A stretch of DNA of 60,276 bases, counting the filler, from Stramenopiles sp. TOSAG23-6 (Eukaryota): NCBI GenBank assembly GCA_900128565.1. It is 12 parts of 12 records of this genome, joined end to end, with 100 filler letters (N's around TTAATTAATTAA, not from the genome) between each part and the next. Parts side by side here need not be neighbours in the genome. Positions count along the whole stretch, not along the records: positions 25,223 to 30,155 come from LT637012.1; 11 more parts are not named here. The stretch is one strand, 5' to 3'. The notes below the pieces were generated by a model. That model had not been told where the DNA came from. It did not search any database and saw only the letters and a list, made by a program, of their open reading frames with translations. Made by a program: the position numbers and the translations under genes. The first letter of the stretch is position 1. Every line of letters begins with the position of its first letter. Below, piece by piece: positions 2,979 to 60,226 of this stretch.

Positions 2979-3375
2979 TTTCAAACTAAGTTTAAAAGTA
3001 TAAAAAGTATATATTAGGATAAACTAACTCTTGTGCGCATATGAAGCAACACCAGCAAAAAAAGTTTTCATGCGCGCACCTACTTTGTCAGCTGCTGACG
3101 CGCTGACGTTTTTTCTTAGGTACGAATATTTGTACGTAACCATTTTGATGCACTTTTGATGACGCGCCACCGCTGAGTTGAGTTCCTGGGCAAAACAAGC
3201 AGTTTTGTTCTGAAATATTGTCAGCTGATCAGGTCGATTACTGAATTTCGAATCAAATCGAATAATTTCTACATCTTTCAAACAATTCGATTGTTTTGTT
3301 AGGTACAAGATTTTCATGAAAAAAATGTAAAATCGAATAATGTCCACATCTTTATATTTAGCAATAAATGTAAAC

Positions 3376-3474
3376 GTACGTTTTTATTTCAATTTCGAAT
3401 TCAAATTTTTTTTTTCGTATGAAATTTTGTACCTAACAATTATTTTTTTTTCGAAATATTTTTTTACAATATAC
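3376..3474 (+). other. Family intron, GT...AC
   Basis: GTACGT donor, GTACCTAAC, ends TTACAATATAC. Removal gives VN|PAFD. Confidence 0.6.
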
Positions 3475-5115: not shown

Positions 5116-6048
5116 GTGATAAATGTAAAAAATTGTGTCGTCCAGGTGTATGTTTTATTTTTTTTTTCAATTTTGAATTTAGTTTTTTTTTTTATAAAAA
5201 TTTTGTACCTAACGAATTTTACAGAAAAAAAATATTTTTTCACAAGATGTTTTATTTTTTTTTTCAATTTTGAATTTAGTTTTTTTTCGTACGAAATTTT
5301 GTACCTAACGAATTTTACAGAAAAAAAATATTTTTTCACAATACGTACACCAGTTCACCGTTGTTCTTTGTGTGACTATGATGTACGTTTTGACTACTGA
5401 AATTTCGTATACATTTCATTATTGATCCGCTATTTCTTAACAAAACGTTTGACCAATTTCAAATTTATAATGTTTTTCACGATACATATGTGTGGTAATT
5501 GTATAGCTAATCAATTCTCTATAGAAAAAAAATCTGATATTGATAAAAATGAATCACGAATACAAGCATTAATTCCGCCTATAAGACCTCCACCTACAAC
5601 TTTGTATCAATTATTTATTGCTAGTGCAATGCTCAATCAAAAAATATTCGCAAAAACAAAGACTGGATGTCTACATTCGGGTATATATGTTTTCATGATG
5701 AATTTCGAATTTTTTTTTTTTTTTAAATTTTCTTTTATACGAAATTTTCGTACCTAACAAAACAAAATTTTAAATATTTTTTTACTATTTAGGGTCTGTG
5801 TTACCTCTGATTATTCCTTCCGCGCTGTGCCTAACATAAACTNTGATAAAGAGTATGAAAAGGCTTTGAAAAGTCTTGCTCCAAATTGTAAATTGAGTAT
5901 TTGTGGAGTCAGAAAAAATGATCAAAAATTGTCATCAATATTTGATCAGGAAGTGTCAACTTTATCAAAATTTGATCACCCAGTAGACTATAATTTGAAT
6001 TCTTTTCTTAGGCTTTCATTGCGAAAAAGCTTCGGGTTTCTTGTGTAA
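5116..6048 (+). CDS. ZZ-type zinc-finger protein, 3' part; exons 5116-5147, 5347-5382, 5488-5680, 5793-6048
   Basis: Spliced product CDKCKKLCRPG|TPVHRCSLCDYD|MCGNC reconstructs a ZZ finger only after intron removal. Confidence 0.75.
5148..5346 (+). other. Family intron, GT...GT, with tandemly duplicated body
   Basis: GTATGT donor, two GTACCTAAC units, ends CACAATACGT. Joins RPG|TPVH in frame. Confidence 0.7.
5383..5487 (+). other. Diverged family intron, GT...AT
   Basis: GTACGT...CACGATACAT. Joins CDYD|MCGNC. Confidence 0.75.
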
Positions 6049-9900: not shown

Positions 9901-10189
9901 GTATGTTTTATTGTTTTTCAAATTCGAATTTATTTTTTTATAAAAATTTTGTACCTAACAAATTTAATTTTTTTTTTTTGAAATATTTTTCCAAAATACA
10001 TNNNNNNNNNNNNNNNNNNNNNNNNNNNNNNNNNNNNNNNNNNNNTTAATTAATTAANNNNNNNNNNNNNNNNNNNNNNNNNNNNNNNNNNNNNNNNNNN
10101 NGGAAAAATATTTCAAAAAAAAATCGTTAGGTACAAAATTTTTATAAAAAAAAAATATAGATAAAAAATTGAAAATAAATAAAATATAC

Positions 10190-15236: not shown

Positions 15237-16354
15237 ATAGTAATTCTAGAATTCGAGATTTGGCAGCTAATGCAACGGCACCATAACCCCCCTTTCCCCC
15301 AAGGGCTTTCGCGGCATCTATTAAAATTGGATCTTGAACATCTGATTCTTGAAGGCTTAAAGTGTGTAGGAGAAAACTATGTAAAACAGAGGACCAAGTG
15401 AGTACATTGAGCATGTATTTTTGAAAAATATTTCAAAAAATCTAAAAAAAAATGTTAGGTACAAAATTTCGTACGAAAAATAATTTCGAAATTGAAAAAA
15501 AATAAAACATACATACTAGATAATTCAAAGAAACGACGTCGATATTTCTGTATTTCAGATTTTGTGTTACTTTTTAATATTATAGTCAATAATGTAATAT
15601 GAGCTTCGCGTATAAGTAGAGGCATTTTTGAAGAAGCTGAAACACCATTATCTTTTGATATTGAGGAGTTTACTAAGGCACCGATGAGTTGCTCTAATGA
15701 AAAAGGAACCATTCTTACCGCATCTCCAAAACGATAAAAGAATTGCCAAACCACCAGAAGTTCAGAACTAGTCTTTGAATCCTTTTGAAGCTCAGGTGTA
15801 AGTGTGAAGATACCATCTGGATTTGGCCAATCAGGTATATCAACACCACGGAGAAGTTCTTCTTTCTCATTTTGTTTGTCATCAATCGGAAAGCGTTTCA
15901 ACCATAGTTTATACGCTGCTGCCTCCTTCTTCTTCTTGAGACGTTCAGCTTTAGCCTTCTTGCGTCTTGCAATCACCTCACGTTTACGTTTCGCTTTGAG
16001 GGCCCTTTTCTTTGCCGCCAGAGCCTTGTTCTGAGTTTTTTTCTTTCGTTTTTTCAAACTCATTTTGCCTAATTTTTTTCCAAGCTGAGTCAGCTTGAAC
16101 GAAGCCCGAACCTTTTCAAAGATTTTTTTTGAAACACCAGCCTTGATTGCACGTCGAAGTGGTAGCTTACAAGCCGCAGATGTGACTCCACAATTTGCAA
16201 CAATCCATTTTTCAATGGCAATGACAGAAGAACCGTGTCTATCTTTTAAAGCTGCAATAGCCATTCTCGCCATTTCCAAATATGTCGCTTTCTTAGCTTT
16301 CGTTTTTTTTTCAGCAATCACTGAAGACATATTTCCCGAGGAGCTTTCAGCCAT
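15237..16354 (-). CDS. Linker histone H1/H5 globular domain + DDT-like domain chromatin protein, 3' partial; intron 15413-15512
   Basis: TYLEMARMAIAALKDRHGSSVIAIEKWI (H15). ELLVVWQFFYRFGD...FSLEQLI...LLIREAHITLL...MLNVLTW (DDT-like). Confidence 0.75.
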
Positions 16355-25555: not shown

Positions 25556-28520
25556 TCAGTCAATTAGTTCATCTGACATTGGTGTAAATCTTTTGACCAA
25601 TTTTGTTGTATCTCTATCTCCCCCAGAAATACGTGACAATGACCACAAAAGGGGCCAAAAACTATTAGCAAGTACAACAAACAATGATACACTATCAGCT
25701 ATCACACTCAGCCATAATGCCATACCACGAAAGACAACAAGTAAAATCACGATAGCATTGATAGAAATTGCTAAACATATATTGAAAATAACAAGTTGCT
25801 GTGCTCGTTTGGCGACGATGATAGCCCCCGGTAAGTTACCTAAATCACCCTGCAGCACGGCACTAGCAGCATCAGCAGTTGTACGAGAACCAATTTCCTG
25901 TACTGCTATACCAATATCAGCATTAGCTAGTGCTATACAGTCATTCAAGCCATCGCCTATAAAAGCTACAACCTCGCCTAAATCTTTTCTCTCTTTTATC
26001 CAACGACCCTTTTCTTCTGGTAGTTGTCCTTGATAAACACCTAGCTCAAAATCAATTACAGAAGCGACAGAGTCAACAGCGGCACCCTTATCACCAGTAA
26101 GTAAAGCACACGAAATAAGTATTGTGAAAAAATATTTGAAAAACACTCCATTAGCATTAGGTACATAATTTCGTACAAGACAAAATGTAACTAAAAATTG
26201 AAACGAAAACGAACACCCGAAGCATTCAAATGCCTAAATGTTTCTACGGAATCTCCTCGAATTGTATCGCGAAGAAGAATCATACCAGCAACTATGTATT
26301 TTGGAAAAATATTTCAAAAAAAAGTAACTCCACATCGATCATGTCTCTTAAACTGTGTAAGTTGAGGTAACTCTCCAGCACCTGCAAATGAAACAACACA
26401 CCCTGTATAGCTAGACATTATTGAGCGAGCAAGCGGATGGTTATCTGCCGATTCAACTGTTGCTGCCCATCGGTGAACATCTTCAAACGTCCATCCACAA
26501 TTTAAATTTTTATCACTAGGCGGAGTAAATACTTTCATATCGATGACTTTAAACTCTCCATTCGTTATAGTACCTGTTTTGTCCACACCCACGGAAGTAA
26601 TCGAAGCCAGATTTGAAAGAGCTTCTGAAGATTTTACTAGCAATTTGTATCTTTTAGCGAGAATTGCAACAGAAGTTGCCCATACCATTGGTGCGGCACC
26701 TACAATAGCACATGGACAACCAGCTACAATGATTACAAGAAATTGAGTAAAATTGTGTTGATAGAGGGAGACAAAAATTGCTATGATTATTATAATAGGA
26801 GTGTACCTGTAATTTTCAGAAATTATTTCAAAAATTTGAAATTTGTTAGGTGCATAATTTGATACGAATAAATAAATAAATAAATTTGAAATGACTCATA
26901 CAAATTTGATACGAATAAATAAATAAATTTGAAATGAATCATACAAATTGATACGAATAAATAAATAAAAATAAATTTGAAATGAATCATAAAAACATAC
27001 CACGACGCAAACATATCTACGAGACTTTGAGTGTGAGACTTTGTGGATTGAATAGTCGCTACAAGGTCATTAATTTTGCTTCGGAAAGAATCTTTCACAA
27101 CTGCTTCTGCTTCGACGACGAGGAAACCAAATTGAACAACAGAACCTGATTGAACTCTACTCTGAAGTTTTTTATTCTTTGCAACCAAAAGTGGTTCCCC
27201 GGTAACGCGACTCTCATCAACTTGTGCTGATCCTTTAACAACTAAACCATCACAAGGAATGGATTTTGGGAAAATATGACAAAAACAAAATTCTTTTGTT
27301 AGGTACAAAACTGTCGACGAAAAAAAAAAAAAAAAAAATCCATGATGAAAATCTACATCTCCTCTCCTACTCTAATGATAATTTTCATTCCTTTCTGAAC
27401 TTTATGGATTTTGGGAAAATATTTCAAACATTAAAATCGTTAGGTACAAAATTTCGTACGAAAAAAAATCGAATTTGAAAAAAAATAACATCGATCATCC
27501 GATTTTTGCCTTTTTCCAAATCTTCACTCATAATTGTCACTTTTCGTGTTTTTTGAGTTGTCATGTATTTTGGAAAATTAAAAATACAACAATTTGTTAG
27601 ATTAGCTACGAAAGTTCGTCAGAATAAATAAATAAATTTAAAATTAAAGTCCACAACGTACATGTATTTTGGAAAAATATTTCAAAAAAAAATCGTTACG
27701 TACAAAATTTCGTACGAAAAATAATTTCGAAATTGAAAGAAAATAAAACGTACATAGTCTTCAACCTTTTACTCACAGTAGCAAAAACAGCCATTTTTAT
27801 ATCATCCATAGTAGTAACAATCAAAGCAACCATAGCCGCAGACATTAGTTCACCTTGGGCAACGGAACCAAAAATTGCTGTTACCATTAATACATCAGCA
27901 TTAATTTGATATAGTAGAAGAGCTGAGAGTGCTCTCTGGTAGACTTTATAGCTTAGTATCAGGACAATGAGATAAAAGCCTAAAGCAATTGTGGCGAGTA
28001 TAGCACCACTAGTATCATAGCTAGTTGCGTTATCATGAGACATAAGGAAGACATAGTCAAGAGAACGAAGTGAACTGATGTCACATGGAAAAGGGCAAAA
28101 TGTTGAAAATCGTTGAATAGTAATAGCTGTTGAAAATAAAATGAATTGTGCAAATAATGGTAAATGGTCACATGTGTTGGATTCCGAAGAATTGTCAACT
28201 GTGTCACCAGATTCTCTTAATGATGCTCCAAGGAACTTTGTATTGAGCTTATCGACCAGCATTAATGGCTTGACGTCCTCGGTATGTGTAATAAACACAA
28301 GTCGGTCCATGACGCTTGCTGCGATATTTCTAATACCGTCAAAATCTGAAAGTAATTGCTTCACCATCTTTACTTCCCCGTTACAACACATTGAATCAAC
28401 TCGTAAGCACGTCTCAACCAAACTTGTTGATTCTTTTGTATTGTTTTTAGGCAAAAGAGGGGAGATCTCACTTAAAGGAATTTTCTTCATTTCCGAGTTA
28501 TACAAGATTGCTAGGTTCAA
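25556..28520 (-). CDS. P1B heavy-metal (Zn/Cd-type) ATPase; introns 27662-27753, 27563-27661, 27404-27489, 27259-27356, 26807-27000, remnant ending 26294, 26117-26214
   Basis: HMA MCCNGE, GEEIPCDG, VDESRVTGE, GCPCA, DKTGT, HPLA, LLTGD, GDGLND. Confidence 0.9.
26117..26214 (-). other. Family intron, GT...TT
   Basis: GTTCGT...GTACCTAAT...TTCACAATACTT. Joins NASG|ISCALLTGD. Confidence 0.65.
26807..27000 (-). other. Family intron, GT...AG, with internal ~42-bp tandem repeats
   Basis: Joins FASW|YTP. Confidence 0.85.
27563..27753 (-). other. Two abutting GT...AT introns (27662-27753 and 27563-27661) with no exon between them
   Basis: Junction reads CCAAAATACAT|GTACGTTG. Removing both gives LKT-M-TTQK. 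Confidence 0.75.
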
Positions 28521-28849
28521 ATCTCGGTGAAATTTTGCTGATTAAACAGTACAATATACGTATCTCTTATTTCAACAAATCTACACAGTGACTTACACTT
28601 AGTGATGTGCTTTAAGTGCCACAGATTCTTTGGTGGTGCTCACTATAGTCTATACGAGTTGTTTGACTTTGACTGTCATGATGACGATGACAGTGTGACA
28701 CCATGACAGCACACGATGACTGACCCTTGGACTGACTGACGTCATTTGAAAAATTTTCAGTTTTTAAAAACTGTTCACTTGTCAACGGACACGGTCAACA
28801 TCATTTTTTTGTCAATTTATTTTATTTAGTTAATTGAAACTTCAAACTT

Positions 28850-30103: not shown

Positions 30104-30305
30104 ATGTATTTTGGAAAAATATTTCAAAAAAAATCTAAAAAAAATTGTTAGGTACNNNNNNNNNNNNNNNNNNNNNNNNNNNNNNNNNNNNNNNNNNNNT
30201 TAATTAATTAANNNNNNNNNNNNNNNNNNNNNNNNNNNNNNNNNNNNNNNNNNNNCATAATAATAATAATAATAATAAAAAAGTCATTTAAAAAAAAAAA
30301 CGTAC

Positions 30306-33300
30306 ATTCGTGCTCGTCTGAATAAAATTTTACCTAGAGTAAACTGAAATTTTGTTGCTGAATTATTACTTAACCCAAGAACGAAAAAAGTACATAATTT
30401 CGTGTTTTGTGTCACGAAATCATAAAAATGATTATCTTTTGTACAAATTGTAAAACAATGCCAAGGGACACTAGGGTTAGGGTTTACATTTTGTGTTTTG
30501 TTGGTTGTATGCATTGGACTATATGGACCAAAATGAACAGACACAATATCATCAAGAAACAGTTTTGTTCCAAATTGTTGTTGTTTTGGATCATTTTTTG
30601 GATCACCCCAACAAATATACGATTTTATCATTGAAATATCATTATTCGTGTTAGGGTTAGGGTTAAATATAACTTTTACAAATTTTTGTTTTGGTTTTGT
30701 TTTCATTGTTTTGATTGTCATAACAGAACCATTTGTCATTATTGTATTTGCATGTAATACATTGATTTCGTGTTTTAATTGACGACATTTTTTGTTTAAT
30801 TGAATTCTTTCATTGATATTTGACTGTAAAACAAAATTTGTTTTTTGTATATTTTGTATTGTAGACAAAGATTCAACATTTCGTGTTTTTTTTTCAGATT
30901 CATTTTTTTTCACTACATTTTGAATATTTACTTCATATTCATTATGTAAAGATTGTAATTGTATTTCATATTCATTATGTATGTTTTGAATTGTTGCTTC
31001 ATGTTCAGTACGATGAATAAAATTTTCATTAGGGTTAGGGTTTTCATTAGGGTTAGGGTTATGTTCATCATTATTTTTGTCATTCATTGAAAATGCATCA
31101 AAAGTATCATTTGTAACAATTGCTTCATTTGTATCATCACCACCAGATGAAATTTCAAACGCATCAAAATCAGCATCATTGTTTTCTTCTTGTGAGTCAG
31201 ATGTAACGACTTGAAATGCATCGAAATTATCATTCGTATTTTGATTAGGGTTAGGGTTTGTTTGATTATTTTGAATTTCTTTTAAATTTTGTAATTCTGT
31301 TTGTAATGTTTGATTTTTAAGATGATATTCCTCCTCATACTGTTTTGCTTTCTCTTGAGATTGTGTATAGAATGTACAACAATATATCAAAGTTGATTTT
31401 TTTTTGTTAGGTAGGGAAATTTTGAAATTTTTTTTTGAAAAAAAAAAAAAAAAAAATTTAAAAAAAAAAAAAAAAAAATTTTAAAAAAAATTCTGAAAAA
31501 AAAAAATCAAAAAAATAGATAACATACAATTTCATCTTTCAATGTTGAAACAGTTGAATCATATTTTTCAACATGAGCTTGGACAGATATTTCATGTGCT
31601 GTATGCATTTCTTTCAACGAATTTTCAATTATTTCAATTTTTGTACAAAATTGTTTTTTTTCATTTTCCATGGATTGAATTTCATTTTCAGATTTAGATA
31701 AAACAATTTTGTGTTTTTCATGTTTATCTAAATGTAAAGAATGTTCATCTTGTAATATTGTATTATTTTTTTGTAAAGATTCTAATTCTTGAATAAGTTG
31801 AAGAATTCGTGATTCATTTACGTTAGATGATGTTTGTTCCATTTTCAGGTTTTCAATCATTTTATTTGAACAGTTTTGTTCCATACGCATTTCGTCCATT
31901 GTGTTCGCTTGTAAAGTCGCTACTTCAATCGCTTTCTGTCGATCTTCTTTTTCATGCTCATACTTTGTTTTATATTCATCAACTGTTGTTTGTATTTCAT
32001 CTACTTCATCTATATATTTTTCAGAAATGTTTGAAATTTCATTTTGATAATCCATTTCGATTTTCTTCATTTTGTAATTTGTTTGACATTCGAATTCAAA
32101 TTGTGTTTCAAGTTCAGAATATTCTTTTTTCTGTATTGACATTTCATTCTTTAGAGTATTTGATTGTGTAGTCATGTCATTTAATTTTGATTCTATATTT
32201 GATATTAATTGTGTGGAGTTATTTTTTTCAATGATGGCTTCATCAATTTTTTTTTGAAATTCGTGTTTTGCCATTTCGTGATTTTGTATAATGTTTTCAT
32301 GTTTTTGTACATTTTGTTCTGATGTTGAAAGATTTTGTTTATACATTTTTAATTGAATGTTTGCATCATGTAATTCATTGGTAGATGTTGTATACTTTTG
32401 TATTGTATCCAAATTTTGTTGTTTTGCGATTTCGTGTTCGTTGTGTAATTGTTGAATTTTATTTGAATAGATTTCGTGTTCATTGTCGACTGCATTTTTC
32501 AACTCGATTTCGTGTTTTTTTGTAGTATTTTGTAATTTAGAATTAATTTGATCAAATTGTTGTAATGTTTTTGAATGTAATTCAACAATATTTTTATTTT
32601 TTGTATGTAAATTTTGAATTTCAGTGGATAAACTGTCGTGTGTTGACAGAAACTGTTCACGTTCGATAGACATTTCTTCGATTTCGTGTTTTGATATATT
32701 ATTTATTTCGTGTTGTTTCAATAATTTTTCGTGTTCTGTTGTGTACAAACGATGTTGTTCAATTTCTAATGTTTTTAGTTTTTCATATGATATTGATGAT
32801 ATTGATGATATTGATGATATAGATTGATCATTGTTGTTTGTTTTATGTTGTGGATTATCATTATCGATTTTTTTTTGTATTTTTTGTGTTTTTTGTTTTT
32901 TTTGGTTTAGAGATGGTTGAGATGTAGTAGGGTTAGGGCTTTTATCATTTTTATCATTTTTGTTATGTTTTTTATGCTTTGCTTTAGGTGACCAATTGGA
33001 TCCTAAATCAGCAAATGGATCTGTATATTTTGTATCAGACATGTTGTTGGATTGTACAGATGGTACTGCTTTTACATTTTTGACATTTTTATTTTGTTTT
33101 TTTTGTTTTTTTTTATTAATTTGATTAATTTCATCTTCGTCTTCAAAATCATCATCTTCATAATTATCATTATTTTTTTCATCATTATTTTTTTCATTAC
33201 TTTTATCATCATCAACATCAAAATCATTATCACTACTATATTCATCATGATTATTTTGATCATTTTGATATTGTACACTACTTGACAGTTTTGTACACTC

Positions 33301-41515: not shown

Positions 41516-44500
41516 AATGGCTACACGTGCTTTACTAAGAGGTGCCAAGGGTAATACTTCAAGAAAATCGACAAAGAAGTCTTCATCGCGTGGCAAAAGC
41601 TTTAAACTTCGTGGTGTCCGGAGTACAAGTTTTATGGATTCCCCGGTGGATGCTGACTCTACTAGCACTGCAGTCACTGATGAAGATGGCCCAACACTAT
41701 TAAGACGAATACGTCGTGATATTAATTGTGTTACAGATCCATCACGTGCTACACGTCTTCGTGCTCTAAAAAAATTACACTCTGAGCTTATTAGTATACC
41801 AATTCGTCCACCAAAAGGATCATTACTTTATATTTTTGAAGAAGCGTTATTTCCTACGTTATTACATGCTTTGAGGGACAACTCTGAAAGTTGTCGTGAA
41901 ATGGCACTCACCATCATAACATACTTTGCTAAGAATATTACCGACGATAAAAGTAATATATTAATTGCTTTTATTCCACTACTTGTAGAACGAGTAGGTT
42001 CATCTCCATTTGTTGAACAATCCGAGGAGCTACGCTTACAACTGCTCTCACTTACTCGTGTTATAATATCTCATTCTTCCGTTTCAGATGGTAAAGTTAC
42101 AGAAGAGTTAGAATCTCTTGTAGTAATACTCTCTAGAATCTTATTAGATCCGTTTGCTGATGTAAAAAAAGAGGCACTAGAAATTATTTTAGTACGTTTT
42201 TTTTTTTAATTTCAAATTATACCTTTTTTTTTAATTGTTTTGGAATATTTTGTAAGAAAAACTAACAAATGGTACATTTGACATTATTCCTTCACAATGC
42301 ATATTCTTACAAGTTCAAAATCAAGTGCTTCAGCATTACACCTACACTTGGAAACATTGGTGAATCCAATACTTGTTAATTGTGAACATCAACATTCTGC
42401 TGTACGACGTGTATGTTTTTTTTTTTTGTTTTTTTTCGTACGAAATGTTGTACCTAACCAAATTTTTTTTTTTTTTTTTTTTTAAATATTTTCCAAAAAT
42501 ACAGTTAGCTTTACGGTCGTTAGGTAAAGTCAGTTCATGTGGGGGAGAAAGTCTATTCAAAATTATGGATGAGAACATCATTCCGATATTAAAAAAAATG
42601 AGATTTGATCATACGGTATCAGTACGTTGTACGGTAGCATCAATTGTTTGTGATTGGCTGTATCAACTACCTGGTCAATATCGTTTTGAATCCAAATTAG
42701 TTCCAATCATTCTTGCATTTATCGGTGATTCATCTCCAGAAGTGTCTATACTAGCAAAAGATTCATTGTCTGCAGCAACAAGAGTATTATATGAATTACA
42801 TATTAAAAATGAAAATGTTGGTCGAGGAAGGAGTCATACAAATCGAGATATGGATGATAATGTTGTAATGACGGATTGTACAGACAATGAGGATGGATTA
42901 GACAAACCTGCTTCGGAGTGTATCCCCACGAATGACGTCATTTCAACACCACAAGAATCTGTACAAAATAGTATGAATGATAATGATGTGTTATCAAATG
43001 ATACAAATCATCATTTACTCAAAAATTTGTCAGATATTTTACCTCTACCGTTTACTGAAAGGCCAGATGTATGTTTTTCATTCTTTTATTATTTCGTGTT
43101 TTTTTTTTTAAATTTTTTTTTAAAATTTTTTTTAAATTTTTTTAAAATTTTTTTAAATTTTTTTTTTGAGTATTTGTTCAAATATACCGTATTGTTCAAA
43201 TATTGTATTACCCATATACATTTTTCTTACAATTCAAGTTTTTAACCCTAACCCTCCACCAAAAATCAAAAAATAAAAAAAATTCAAGTTTTTAACCCTA
43301 ACCCTAATTGTATCCTATTGTTTATATCATATGGATTGACACGTGTTTTTATTAATCGATTGGCTCCTACAATTTTACCTGTGATATTTCAAGATATATC
43401 GAATTGGACATCTCAAATTCGAATTTGTGGTGTTTCACAATTAAGATCATTTTTAGTGTATAATGAAGAACATAGTACTGCACAGCTTGACCAAATTTTA
43501 GAGACGTTACGATCAGCCTCACTTGATGACGAAGGTGAAATTGCATGTATTTTTTTTTTTTTTTGAAATTTTTTTTTTTTGAAATTTTTTTTTTGAAATT
43601 TTTTTTTTGAAATTTTTTTTTTATAGGAAATTTTGTACCTAACAATTTTTTTTTAGATTTTTTAAATATTTTTCCAAAATATATCACTTGTAATGAATTG
43701 TGCAAAAATTTTTGGATATTTTGTTAATGTTGATGCTATATTACGTATAGTATTACCTTGGGCTTTGGGAGAGAATGGATTAACATCATCACGACAACGT
43801 TGTGGTGCTTTAGCTTGTACGTGTACACAACAACTTGAATTTCGAATTTATTTTTTTCAAAATTTTTTTTAAAATTTTTTTCAAAATTTTTTTTAAAATT
43901 TTTCAAAAATTTTTTTAAAATTATTTTTTCACAAATTGAAATGTATTGAAATATTTTCACATCGTATAGTACTCTCTGCAATTTTTGATGGTGTCGTAGA
44001 TTCTGTGACAAATCATCAATTGAAAATTACAGCTGAGACATTATTTAATCCAATTATATGTGCCAGTGAGGATTCTGAGGTCCATTGTTGGTTACTTGTT
44101 TTAGTTGATTCTTTATTGAAAGCATCATCAGTTCAAAAAATACAAAAAATACAAAAAATACAAAAAATACAAAAAATAGAAACTGAAAGCCTTCTTACAA
44201 AAGAGACAGTACCATCAGTAAGTGTAAGTGATGAACATAGTATTGTTACATCTGATATTCAATTTGCGTTGTTACGTGTATTATGTACGTTTTTATTATG
44301 ATTTTTTTTTTAATATTTTTATTTTATTTTTTCGTAGTTAATTTTGTACCTAACAAATTTTCAAAATTTTTTTGAAATATTTTTCCAAAAATACAGTACA
44401 ATTACGCGCAAATAATGTTAATGTCGATATACAACTTGATGCATTGACGAAAGCTTCGTCATATGAAAAACAATCTGCATTATTTTCGATTCATTTTATG

Positions 44501-56534: not shown

Positions 56535-58112
56535 CTATTNACTAATCTTTTCTAAAGCTTCTTTAACTGATTTCACTGAACTCATTTTAGTTTTATGAGT
56601 ATCCATTAAATTAGAAATACGTTTTGTATTTGATTCAGAATATCCAGCTTTTTTCAAAATAGTAGCAGCATCTTTCACTTTCATTTTCTCCATTTTTTTT
56701 CCAGTCACAAAAATGACAGATTCTGGATGAGGACATAAATTTGGCATGTTTGACTTTTTCAAATATGATGTAGAAGAAATTAAATTTACATCCCCTTTCG
56801 TTTTAGATGTACCTTTTTCAATATGACTACTCCAAGCACGTGCTACACCAGAGTCTGTCCATATAGCATGATGTTTAGCATACACATTTTCATTGTTGAT
56901 GATTTCATTTGACTTTGAGTCATTGAATGTAAACAATAAAATAGATTTTTTAGATTTTGTTAAAAATACAAAACACGAAATCGGTGCTGTTGGTACAAAA
57001 GAAATGTTTTCGATTTTATCCACTGTGCCATACGAAGTTCATGTATTGGTGAAAATATATTTACGTTTGAACGTTTTGTTAGGTATAAAAACTCATAGAT
57101 TTTTTTTAGAAAAAAAAAGAATGAAAATCATTAGGGTTAGGGTTATAAACATACCTGCACAATCCATTTGATCCAAACGCCATCGTGGTACAGCTTCAGG
57201 TCTAGTATCAAGAGAATAAGCATCTACTTCTTCTTGTGATAGTTGTGTGAATTTTTCATCTCTCCAAGGACCAGATCGTCCAGTTTTTTCTGTATACGCT
57301 TCACGTGCGTCATTGATTGTTTCTGCTGCCACTGCAATTTGAGCTTGTAAAGCAGTCACTGAGACATCACCTGAAACAACAATACGACATGTGTGAACTA
57401 ACTCATCATGAACACGATGATCAATTGCTTTCGAAATAGCAATAAACGATTGATCAGTCATTTTTGAAGTGTGGTATATAGTTATTGGATGTGGCTCTTT
57501 TGGTGCCCTTGTGGGTACAGCACACAAAATTTTCTGGGCAGCAGCTACAAAAGTAGGCGTGTCCGATATTATACGAGTACGTAATTCAGCACTTCTATGA
57601 GACCCTATAGATGCGTCATGAACAAACACATCAGTCACGTTAGATAAGTGGTCCGTCACCGAGTCATATACAGTAGCAAAATCACCTGATAAATCTGATG
57701 GCAACACATTTTTTTTTGATTCAATTGATACAGTGCCATTTTTTTCCACAGATAAACCATGGTTTTGTAGTTTACGGATACTCAAGTTACGATATGCGTT
57801 TGACATTGGTGAAACATCATCAGTACATAAAGACCAGTTTAAAGCGTAGTTACGCCCTGGACCTTCGCGTGGAAACGACATGACATCCGCATCAAAGTCT
57901 GGAGTACCCCAAAGTGGATCGGTCTTGCCACTTGACAAAGGTGGTGGTAACGATGTGGCGTCTCCAAACACTTCACCGTTTCTGTGACGCATCAGTGGGC
58001 GTCCTGCTTTATCTACGTCTCCTTCAGCCAATGCACAGAATGACCTGACGCCTCTAGCAAATACATAACGAGATGCCTTTACAGTTGAAGCTCTAAGCAA
58101 TGTTGTGACCAT
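56535..58112 (-). CDS. Mitochondrial-targeted, degenerate PEPCK(ATP)-like protein; intron 57041-57154
   Basis: Arg/Ser-rich presequence. DVFVHDASIGSHRSAELRTRIISD resembles the PEPCK N-domain; no Walker A seen. Confidence 0.55.
57041..57154 (-). other. Family intron, CAG|GT...AT
   Basis: Joins DCA-G-TSYG. A 2-nt upstream register would create TGA. Confidence 0.85.
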
Positions 58113-58474: not shown

Positions 58475-60226
58475 ATGCTACTCAATGGAATAAAAAATTC
58501 AGCGTATCGAATTCATTTCAAAAATTCTGTTCCTTTATCCTTGTTACGTTCAGTATCTACCTCTGTAGATGAATCTGTTGATGCTTATTTGCATCGTACT
58601 CAAATCCCTACTGACTTTTTTCAGTCGTCCTTACCAAAGTTACCAATACCTAAGCTTGAAGATACTATTCGTCGTTATTTGTTGAGTTGTAAACCATTGT
58701 TATCAGATGAAGAATATAAAGAGACTGAGAAAGCTACGCATGAATTTTTGAATGGTGTTGGTCCAAAACTACAGTCTCAGCTTGAAAAAAAAAATGCCTT
58801 GTCCTATTCTAATTACGTGTCTAAACCTTGGTTTGACGTATATCTTGAAGCTCGTCAATCTCTCTTAATAACTACAAATCCACAAATTACATTACGTCGT
58901 GATGAAAGACGTTCATCACAAGTAGCACGGGCTGCTTCACTTGCGTATTCAGCGACAATATTTTATAGAACTTTGAGAGATGAACAACTGGAGCCAGATT
59001 TATTTCACACAAAACCAAAATTAACAAAGACATCATTTTTTACTCATCTTATTAATATGATACCTAGATCTGTATCATTTTATGCATCTGCTGCATGTGG
59101 AGCCTATGCATTAGATATGAGTCAATATGATCGTTTATTTAAATCTACACGAATTCCAAAGAAAAATAAAGATGTACTTTGTGGCGGATTACGTGACACG
59201 TGGGGAAAAAGTTGTACGACAAATAATCCGGGTATTGGTCCCAAGCATATTGTTGTACAGAAAGGTGCATTATTTTATAAGGTCGATGTTTTGGATGATA
59301 GAGGACTCGCTATATCACAATCCATTGTTGAAAAGTGTTTTCAGGAAATTATTGACGCGAAAGTAAATGAAAGTGATGATGTTTTTTATATTGGATCCTG
59401 TACTTCTTTGCCCAGAAATGATTGGGCTAGATTACGTCATCGCATTGAGAGTCAAAGTTGTATTAATTCAGCTACATTACACGACATTGATAGTTCATTA
59501 TTTATGGTATCTCTTGATGATGAAGATATTTTGAATCAAGATTTGAATCAAGATTTTAAAAATACCATTAGCAATAGTATTCAAAACAATATTAATGTTG
59601 ATATAAAAAGTAATGCTGAAGTTGCATCACTCTGTCGGACAATGCTTCATGGTAATCAATGCCGTGATAGATGGTTAGATAAAAGTTTTCAAATTATTGT
59701 TACAAAATCTGGTGAAGCAGCAATAAATTTTGAACATTCCTGGGGTGATGGTGTTGCTGTTCTACGATTTTGTACTGAAATTGTAAAACATTGTGAGAAA
59801 ATACCCGTTGTGAATAACCCTAACCCTAGGGAGAAAAAAAAACAAAAAGTAACTCAACTAGGGTTAGGGTTAACTCAATTACAGTGGGATATTTGTGATG
59901 AAACAAAAGCAATGATTCGAAATGCATCTGATCAAGCTGGTGCTTTAATTAGTTCTACTGATATAGATGTATGTTTTTTTTCTAACCCTAACCCTAATTT
60001 TGTCATCTACTTTTTTTTTTTTTTATCATTCGATAATTTTGTACCTAACAGAAAAATCATTTTTTTTTGAAATATTTTTTCATAATGTATGTATTTCAAA
60101 GTTTGGATTTTAATGCAATTTGGATGAAAAATAATTATTTAAGTCCTGATGGTGTGATGCAAATGTTATTCCAATTATCTCATCATTATTTATTTGGTGT
60201 TCCCGCTTCAACATATGAAAGTGCAT
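58475..60226 (+). CDS. CPT2: Carnitine O-palmitoyltransferase 2, 3' partial; intron 59969-60090
   Basis: FQSSLPKLPIPKLEDTIRRYL, DMSQY.RLF.STRIP, RWLDKSF, FEHSWGDGVAVLR, LSPDG...TYES. Confidence 0.92.

Follow-up and report, generated by a model that had tools for sequence, protein, structure and literature searches.

Here we describe two short introns that stand end to end in the gene for a P-type ATPase of the marine protist Stramenopiles sp. TOSAG23-6 (assembly GCA_900128565.1). They lie in a stretch of 60,276 nucleotides (nt), filler included, which was analyzed as a whole and is called the window throughout; all positions are counted along it, and the gene falls within the part taken from LT637012.1. 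The two introns, U1 and U2, are read on the minus strand and are members of an "introner"-type family of transposon-like elements of about 100 nt.

Related Intron Systems

The closest described relatives are the introners, transposon-derived intron families found in Micromonas, Aureococcus, Symbiodinium, Chrysochromulina, and others, in which the target duplication made on insertion can supply a splice site (Gozashti et al. 2022, PMC9860276; PMC11282704). The family in the window resembles introners in having many similar short copies in unrelated genes, with a direct repeat straddling the ends, and in combining one element-borne splice site with another that comes from the duplication. The difference lies in the ends, as the introners of PMC9860276 and PMC11282704 are given there with GY donors and AG acceptors, whereas the 3′ end in the window is AT in 19 of 24 delimited units. 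End-to-end pairs are not described in either paper, from which the words "tandem" and "nested" are absent.

A second group of repeated introns is that of Amoebophrya, which are non-canonical and carry 3–5 nt direct repeats and inverted repeats at their ends (Farhat et al. 2021, PMC7789003). Repeated introns, direct repeats at the borders, dinucleotides other than GT-AG, and the failure of standard gene finders are common to both cases. In Amoebophrya, no dinucleotide pair is reported there to dominate, and inverted repeats of 8–20 nt form hairpins (PMC7789003). In the window, on the contrary, GT...AT is dominant, a yeast-like donor and a branch-like motif are kept, and the ends pair weakly (folding z scores from −1.8 to +0.9).

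The arrangement of the pair also recalls recursive splicing at zero-length exons, as reported for the ratchet points of Drosophila (PMC5126111) and for SPNCRNA.445 of Schizosaccharomyces pombe (10.1101/226894). Here, as in those cases, a 3′ site stands directly against a 5′ site, making piecewise removal possible. The known cases reportedly involve AG|GT in long introns or introns of snoRNA hosts and were shown with RNA; U1 and U2, unlike them, have an AT|GT joint between two mobile copies of about 95 nt in a coding gene, known here from the sequence.

Finally, fungal stwintrons and complex intervening sequences are excised in consecutive or in single reactions (PMC7138796; PMC8469720, PMC9024468, PMC12403724). 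They likewise consist of two U2-type units (here the intron class) at one position, and some have spread as families of similar sequence. In a stwintron, however, the inner intron disrupts a donor, branch, or acceptor belonging to the outer intron, whereas U1 and U2 are each complete over model positions 1–100 and merely touch. Our literature search, which covered the main text of openly available papers, returned no description of abutting introner pairs among the titles listed, nor one of AT-ended introners in stramenopiles, and what it returned on abutting introns concerned fungal stwintrons. What sets the locus apart from the known systems is the dominant GT...AT boundary, the AT|GT joint, and the abutment of two unrelated mobile copies in a coding gene.

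Anatomy of the Abutting Pair

U1 occupies positions 27753..27662 (92 nt) and U2 positions 27661..27563 (99 nt). No base separates them, the last T of U1 directly preceding the G with which the GTACGT of U2 begins. Both units start with GTACGT and end with CCAAAATACAT, and a 3′ site consequently abuts a 5′ site at 27662/27661 (...CCAAAATACAT|GTACGT), each half being typical of family ends. The joint itself, where the final two bases of U1 meet the initial two of U2 (27660..27663, minus strand; read from the sequence and from zero-gap profile neighbors), is AT|GT, unlike the classical AG|GT of recursive splicing. Each unit also has a branch-like motif of its own: in U1 it is GTACGTAAC (27703..27695), with the presumed branch A at 27696 and 34 nt to the end of the unit, and in U2 it is TCTAAC (27601..27596), also 34 nt before the unit end.

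The exon before U1 ends in ...AAG ACT AT (to 27754), and the exon after U2 begins with G ACA ACT (from 27562). When both units are taken out, the join reads ACT AT|G ACA, which restores an in-frame ATG codon. An nhmmer profile built from 19 delimited family copies, with U2 left out, matches U1 over model positions 1–100 (E 2.7e-17) and U2, the more diverged copy, over the same full length (E 1.9e-4), while the 17-base string across the junction has an expectation of 0.02 occurrences in shuffles. With a held-out profile that runs full length on both units and leaves zero gap between them, the two abutting family units are confirmed at these coordinates and go beyond chance.

An initial annotation of this DNA had already proposed two introns around a zero-length exon at 27753–27662 and 27661–27563, a rebuilt ATG codon on removal of both, and a variant branch-like motif in U1. 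Its coordinates and letters are all correct, the codon is indeed rebuilt in frame, and the variant motif is present where given above. Its description of U1 as consensus-like holds only roughly, the identity to the window consensus being 85%, or 93% once gap columns are left out.

A Family of Repeated Introns with AT Ends

The family to which U1 and U2 belong is abundant. The window contains 20 occurrences of its 26-base core at up to three mismatches, with 0 expected, and 45 of its 17-base core; the nhmmer profile yields 90 rows at E≤10, 51 at E≤0.01, and 22 of full length. The host genes are unrelated and include the ATPase, a mitochondrial carrier, a DNAAF5-like gene, a Wntless-like gene, and others. 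For a closer description, 24 units were delimited: 20 of the 45 core hits automatically (two of their starts were corrected by hand) and four that were added by hand, namely U2 and the introns D, E, and G of the ATPase gene. The remaining core hits were dropped owing to N runs or to ends that were unrecognized or unclear.

These units have a rather uniform layout. Their donors read (AT)GTAYGT, with the upstream exon ending in AT in 20 of 24, and the units themselves end in AT (19), AG (3), GT (1), or TT (1). Of 23 units, 20 are followed directly by a purine, and 16 of 24 have a pyrimidine at position −3. Every one of the 24 has a branch-like motif 32–47 nt (median 41) before its end, as CCTAAC in 19, CCTAAT in three, TCTAAC in U2, and CGTAAC in U1 alone; in 11 of the 24, an AG downstream of that motif is bypassed. 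The family introns measure 73–123 nt, apart from intron E with its 194 nt, of which 154 separate the donor from the branch motif. The AT before the units and the AT at their end look like a two-base target duplication set in a loose Y-AT-R context. At the inner side of these repeats, candidate inverted ends amount to GTA...TAC and a loose match of a T-run with an A-run, read directly from the sequence; the folds are not below shuffles.

A reading as U12-type AT-AC introns was considered and rejected. Such introns have the donor consensus ATATCCTT in a register that starts with AT and ends with AC, whereas the family donors read (AT)GTAYGT and the joint of intron G (26116/26215) allows only GT..TT or TG..CT. 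A 22-mer from the family core had 0 matches in viral and prokaryote genome collections, and exact scans of JGI metagenome contigs gave 0 matches each for a U2-specific 28-mer and for the 21-base joint.

The copies also mark the limits of the assembly. A large number of the N gaps with TTAATTAATTAA linkers have a border that falls within a family copy (e.g., at 10002, 15145, 20087, 25219, 40344, 45222, and 50249). The assembler therefore breaks at the repeat, and the counts of copies and of pairs are lower bounds.

The Host Gene and the Removal of Sibling Introns

The host gene is a P-type ATPase of the heavy-metal type (P1B-like) that extends on the minus strand between about 28541 and 25560. 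A Pfam scan places PF00122 (E1-E2 ATPase) on exon 4 (E 8.1e-17), the spliced model contains CPC and DKTGT motifs, and the relatives are full-length ATPases of 47–66% identity, two of which are named Cd2+/Zn2+-exporting ATPase at their source. Exon 1 (27754..28541, ending ...AAG ACT AT) is an open frame identical to the start of the public gene model P0001; protein searches with this exon (263 aa) and with its last 90 aa, aimed at RNA-derived fragments that span the junction, gave no match. Exon 2 (27490..27562, 73 nt, starting G ACA ACT) is placed by homologue alignment.

Transcript evidence comes from Logan contigs of one DNA run (X3) and three poly(A) RNA runs (X5, X8, and X10), and the contig findings given here and below rest on the matches listed, which take in 15 of 98 joints and part of the pieces. 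Within this scope, record 14 of X3 covers 27744–28600 and thus exon 1, and record 5 of X10 reaches 27490–27509 in exon 2, as deduced from record length and bin depth. Intron G (26117..26214, 98 nt, GT...TT) is absent from X10 record 2 and X5 record 16, RNA contigs that join 26116 to 26215, and is kept in the DNA contig X3 record 8. Excision at the DNA level is rejected on the same grounds, since the DNA contig keeps intron G while the RNA contigs are without it. Intron E (26807..27000, 194 nt, GT...AG) is skipped in contigs of three runs (X10 record 4, X5 record 18, and X8 record 25), where the cut at 26804–26997 equals the given borders when a 3-base ambiguity is allowed for.

The remaining two siblings lie closer to the pair. 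Removal of intron D (27259..27356, 98 nt, GT...AT) gives GEEIPCDG...DESRVTGE, which aligns with homologues, and the matching of X5 record 18 and X10 record 5 stops at 27258, the 3′ edge of this intron under the GT...AT reading. For intron C (27404..27489, 86 nt, ending ...CCAT; profile E 7.7e-16), an X5 RNA contig departs from the window at 27405, the 3′ edge, and continues with letters of the upstream exon. Sibling copies of the family are thus removed at the RNA level, and an AG is not required for their removal.

The public model P0001 is 100% identical over exon 5. It runs on into U1 (…KTMYVLFSFNFEIIFRTKF) and treats intron D as coding, and is therefore wrong at this locus; further on, it keeps other intron-derived residues because the model cannot use ends other than AG. 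It follows that gene catalogs of this organism will be wrong wherever the family sits.

Some minor features of these introns deserve mention. U1, U2, C, and D put four family copies within 495 nt (27259–27753, minus strand), with exons as short as 73 and 47 nt between them, and this cluster may be a local hot spot of insertion. The interior of intron E (26856–26995, minus strand) holds a 43-nt unit three times over (86% matches, according to Tandem Repeats Finder) that begins with a donor-like GTATGA. At intron C, the X5 RNA contig has six extra exon letters (two codons) before the cut relative to the window (27484–27495, minus strand), to be explained either by a difference between strains or by a minor fault of the assembly.

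Probable Insertion beside a Resident Copy

U1 and U2 are not close relatives within the family. They agree in 72 of 106 columns (68%), U2 takes the 19th place among the 23 partners compared with U1, and the copy closest to U1 is found in another gene 12 kb away (15512..15413; 96% of ungapped columns). U2, for its part, agrees with the window consensus at 71%, or at 89% without gap columns, and Tandem Repeats Finder reported no period of about 95 nt between 26700 and 27800. That U1 has its nearest relative 12 kb off and shares 68% with U2 argues against a local duplication. Given the AT repeat at the family ends, each resident copy offers an AT at both edges, and YATR sites number a median of one inside the element versus two at its edges. 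For 51 copies in 60 kb, the expected number of re-insertions at an edge runs from 0.43 (5936 AT sites) to 2.39 (1067 YATR sites); one abutting pair is therefore to be expected at this copy density, with no need for special self-targeting.

The mechanism we propose starts from a family that would insert with a two-base AT duplication, a copy then reading AT-[GTA...TAC]-AT. The element itself would supply the GT donor and the branch-like CCTAAC, with the duplicated AT replacing AG as the end of the intron. A resident copy would recreate Y-AT-R at both its edges (exon Y-AT-G on the 5′ side and C-AT-exon R on the 3′ side), and a later copy, probably the less diverged U1, would have landed in the 5′ AT of the resident, probably U2. 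The product would be AT-U1-AT-U2-AT, with no exon base between the units.

As the origin of the pair, insertion next to a resident copy appears well supported by these comparisons. The initial annotation had likewise suggested a newcomer at the AT|GT edge of an older element, which agrees with the low identity of the two units, the lack of a period of about 95 nt, and the AT repeat; the order that it gave comes from divergence only, by which U2 probably arrived before U1. The full account, in which two separate family copies came together by insertion of a newcomer beside a resident and are removed as two successive introns, we hold to be fairly probable.

Several points weigh against it. U1 is not especially near the consensus (85% with gaps) and the divergence of U2 consists mostly of indels, and U2 may belong to another subfamily instead of being an older copy. 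The terminal inverted repeat of the family is short and imperfect. No transposase turned up in a Pfam scan of 45 frames of at least 110 aa in the window (45 of 60 open frames, 15 being omitted as overlapping or as opposite-strand shadows), nor did the rows listed contain an empty-site contig or a presence–absence polymorphism, for which one window is a weak test. The CGTAAC of U1, a rare C-to-G change, fits removal in a single step equally well. No RNA contig or independent DNA contig among those listed covers 27510–27743. Lastly, the assembly is faulty 1.3 kb from the pair (26296–26322) and perhaps also at the 5′ edge of intron C.

One Step or Two

The mRNA has to lose both units. Since both carry GTACGT, a branch-like motif 34 nt from the end, and CCAAAATACAT, two successive introns of about 95 nt are the most likely arrangement. 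Whichever unit left first, the second would be left with typical surroundings (...AT|GTACGT or ...ACAT|G). Stepwise removal would amount to recursive splicing at a zero-length exon, with AT|GT in place of AG|GT, and is favored over a single step as the most likely route.

The explanation that competes best is a composite intron of 191 nt, which the initial annotation had named as the alternative to recursive splicing, removed in one reaction from the GT of U1 (27753) to the AT of U2 (27563) by way of the U2 branch site, with the 3′ signals of U1 and the donor of U2 as silent passengers. It would account for the branch-like motif of U1, which alone among the 24 units has CGTAAC for CCTAAC: in X3 metagenome contigs matched to U1, the consensus base at the variant position (27699) makes up 89521.5 of a total depth of 90322.7 (105 contigs), and in three runs hardly any family copy lacks it. 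Nor would length be an obstacle, given that RNA of three runs shows the removal of intron E, which measures 194 nt and has its branch motif 154 nt from the donor. On the other hand, the CCAAAATACAT end of U1 and the GTACGT of U2 are both intact, the other family introns measure 73–123 nt, and the signals of U1 are transcribed first. The altered base, moreover, falls on the position of the yUnAy branch consensus where constraint is lowest. We regard a composite intron as a distinct possibility that falls short of probable.

A role of RNA structure in steering the cut, whether by pairing of the ends or by a hairpin at the junction, was dropped because the fold energies are not below those of shuffles (z of −1.83 for U1, +0.88 for U2, −0.84 for the pair, and −0.37 for the pair with flanks).

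Integrity of the Joint

A different concern is that the joint might be an artefact of assembly, with one unit in the true locus, or with other sequence between the two, and with family copies falsely joined. The joint is given by the assembly alone, no independent contig among those listed spans it, and contig depth is 0–0.27 in the bin 27498–27599. The many gaps next to family copies in the window, as well as the proven loss of exon sequence at 26296–26322, speak for this possibility. The independent support that exists concerns exon 1 and its passage into a U1-type start: X3 record 14, from an independent metagenome, differs from the window at five positions, all exonic, and its last ten letters are those of the U1 start (TTTA, where U2 has TGTG). 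Against a false joint also speak the sequence of U2, which is unique and contiguous with exon 2, and the position of the joint exactly at the element ends, with the same orientation and the frame kept. Moreover, the two contexts share only nine bases, which should not suffice to cause a false graph join at the usual word sizes.

The protein points the same way. Through KRLKTM|TTQKTRKV, the spliced product has no gap against 18 homologues, column for column, with zero residues missing; the sole difference in length is a surplus of 2–5 residues, 12 residues past the junction and inside exon 2. A collapsed exon between the units, which the initial annotation had named as the observation that would overturn its reading, finds no counterpart in these alignments, and an exon hidden between U1 and U2 seems unlikely. 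All in all, we judge an assembly artefact improbable.

The fault at 26296–26322 (minus strand) takes the form of an apparent intron of 27–35 nt that is in fact a loss of sequence in the assembly. X5 and X8 RNA contigs part from the window sequence at 26295 and 26323, and their further letters encode the ATPase segments expected there; the X3 DNA contigs, too, are broken at 26296–26322.

The Alternative of Tandem Duplication

Tandem duplication of one resident intron, by slippage or unequal exchange, with later divergence of one copy, does have precedents in this DNA. Among the 50 neighbor pairs formed by the 51 profile hits, there are two zero-gap pairs on the same strand, U1/U2 and 5148–5246/5247–5346 (plus strand; the profile hit of the second unit stops at 5344). 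The latter is 96% identical over ungapped columns, has a period shifted 2 nt from the element ends, and reads as a local duplication or an assembly effect; the threefold 43-nt unit of intron E is another instance of repetition. For U1 and U2 such an origin is very unlikely, as they are no nearer to each other than random family members, with U1 far closer to the copy 12 kb away, have their break precisely at the ends of the element, from which the true duplication at 5148–5346 is offset, and form no period that Tandem Repeats Finder detects.

A composite U1–U2 dimer that moves as one unit was rejected, as the joint had neither another occurrence in the window nor a match in JGI metagenome contigs.

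The pair at 5148–5346 has a further peculiarity: it can be removed in frame in two ways, as GT...AG to 5353 or as GT...GT to 5346. There is also an N gap 100 nt upstream of it.

Implications for AT-Ended Introns

Independent copies standing end to end would be direct anatomical evidence that GT...AT introns arrive by insertion with AT duplication, and slow drift of old introns fits such a pair poorly. The pair can also be seen as a built-in experiment on the choice of 3′ ends without AG, since a single transcript offers two donors, two AT ends at set distances, and two branch motifs, of which one bears a rare change. The proportions in which intermediates and lariats form could tell whether branch distance, the terminal motif, or first-come pairing is the rule by which the cut is made.

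More tentatively, and with considerable doubt, we suggest that the spliceosome of this protist lineage may accept an end defined by the element (...CCAAAATAC plus the duplicated AT, about 34–47 nt past CCTAAC) rather than an AG, and that copies, each renewing the target of the element at its two edges, may stack head to tail into arrays that would be dismantled unit by unit at AT|GT zero-length exons. If true, AG-independent recursive splicing would be created directly by transposition. For the present, the pair adds, in a modest but useful way, to the finding that the genes of this organism are filled with mobile AT-ended introns.

Other Observations in the Window

Two family-like units stand head to head on opposite strands at 3258–3474, where the GTACGT of one unit overlaps that of the other within the palindrome ACGTACGT (about 3374–3381). 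In addition, two telomere-like CCCTAA units follow closely on the donor in two family copies and occur again at a third place, the sites being 57131–57144 (minus strand), 59984–59997 (plus strand), and 43294–43307 (plus strand). The same CCCTAA 14-mer also encodes NPNP repeats in a gene at 30287–31480.

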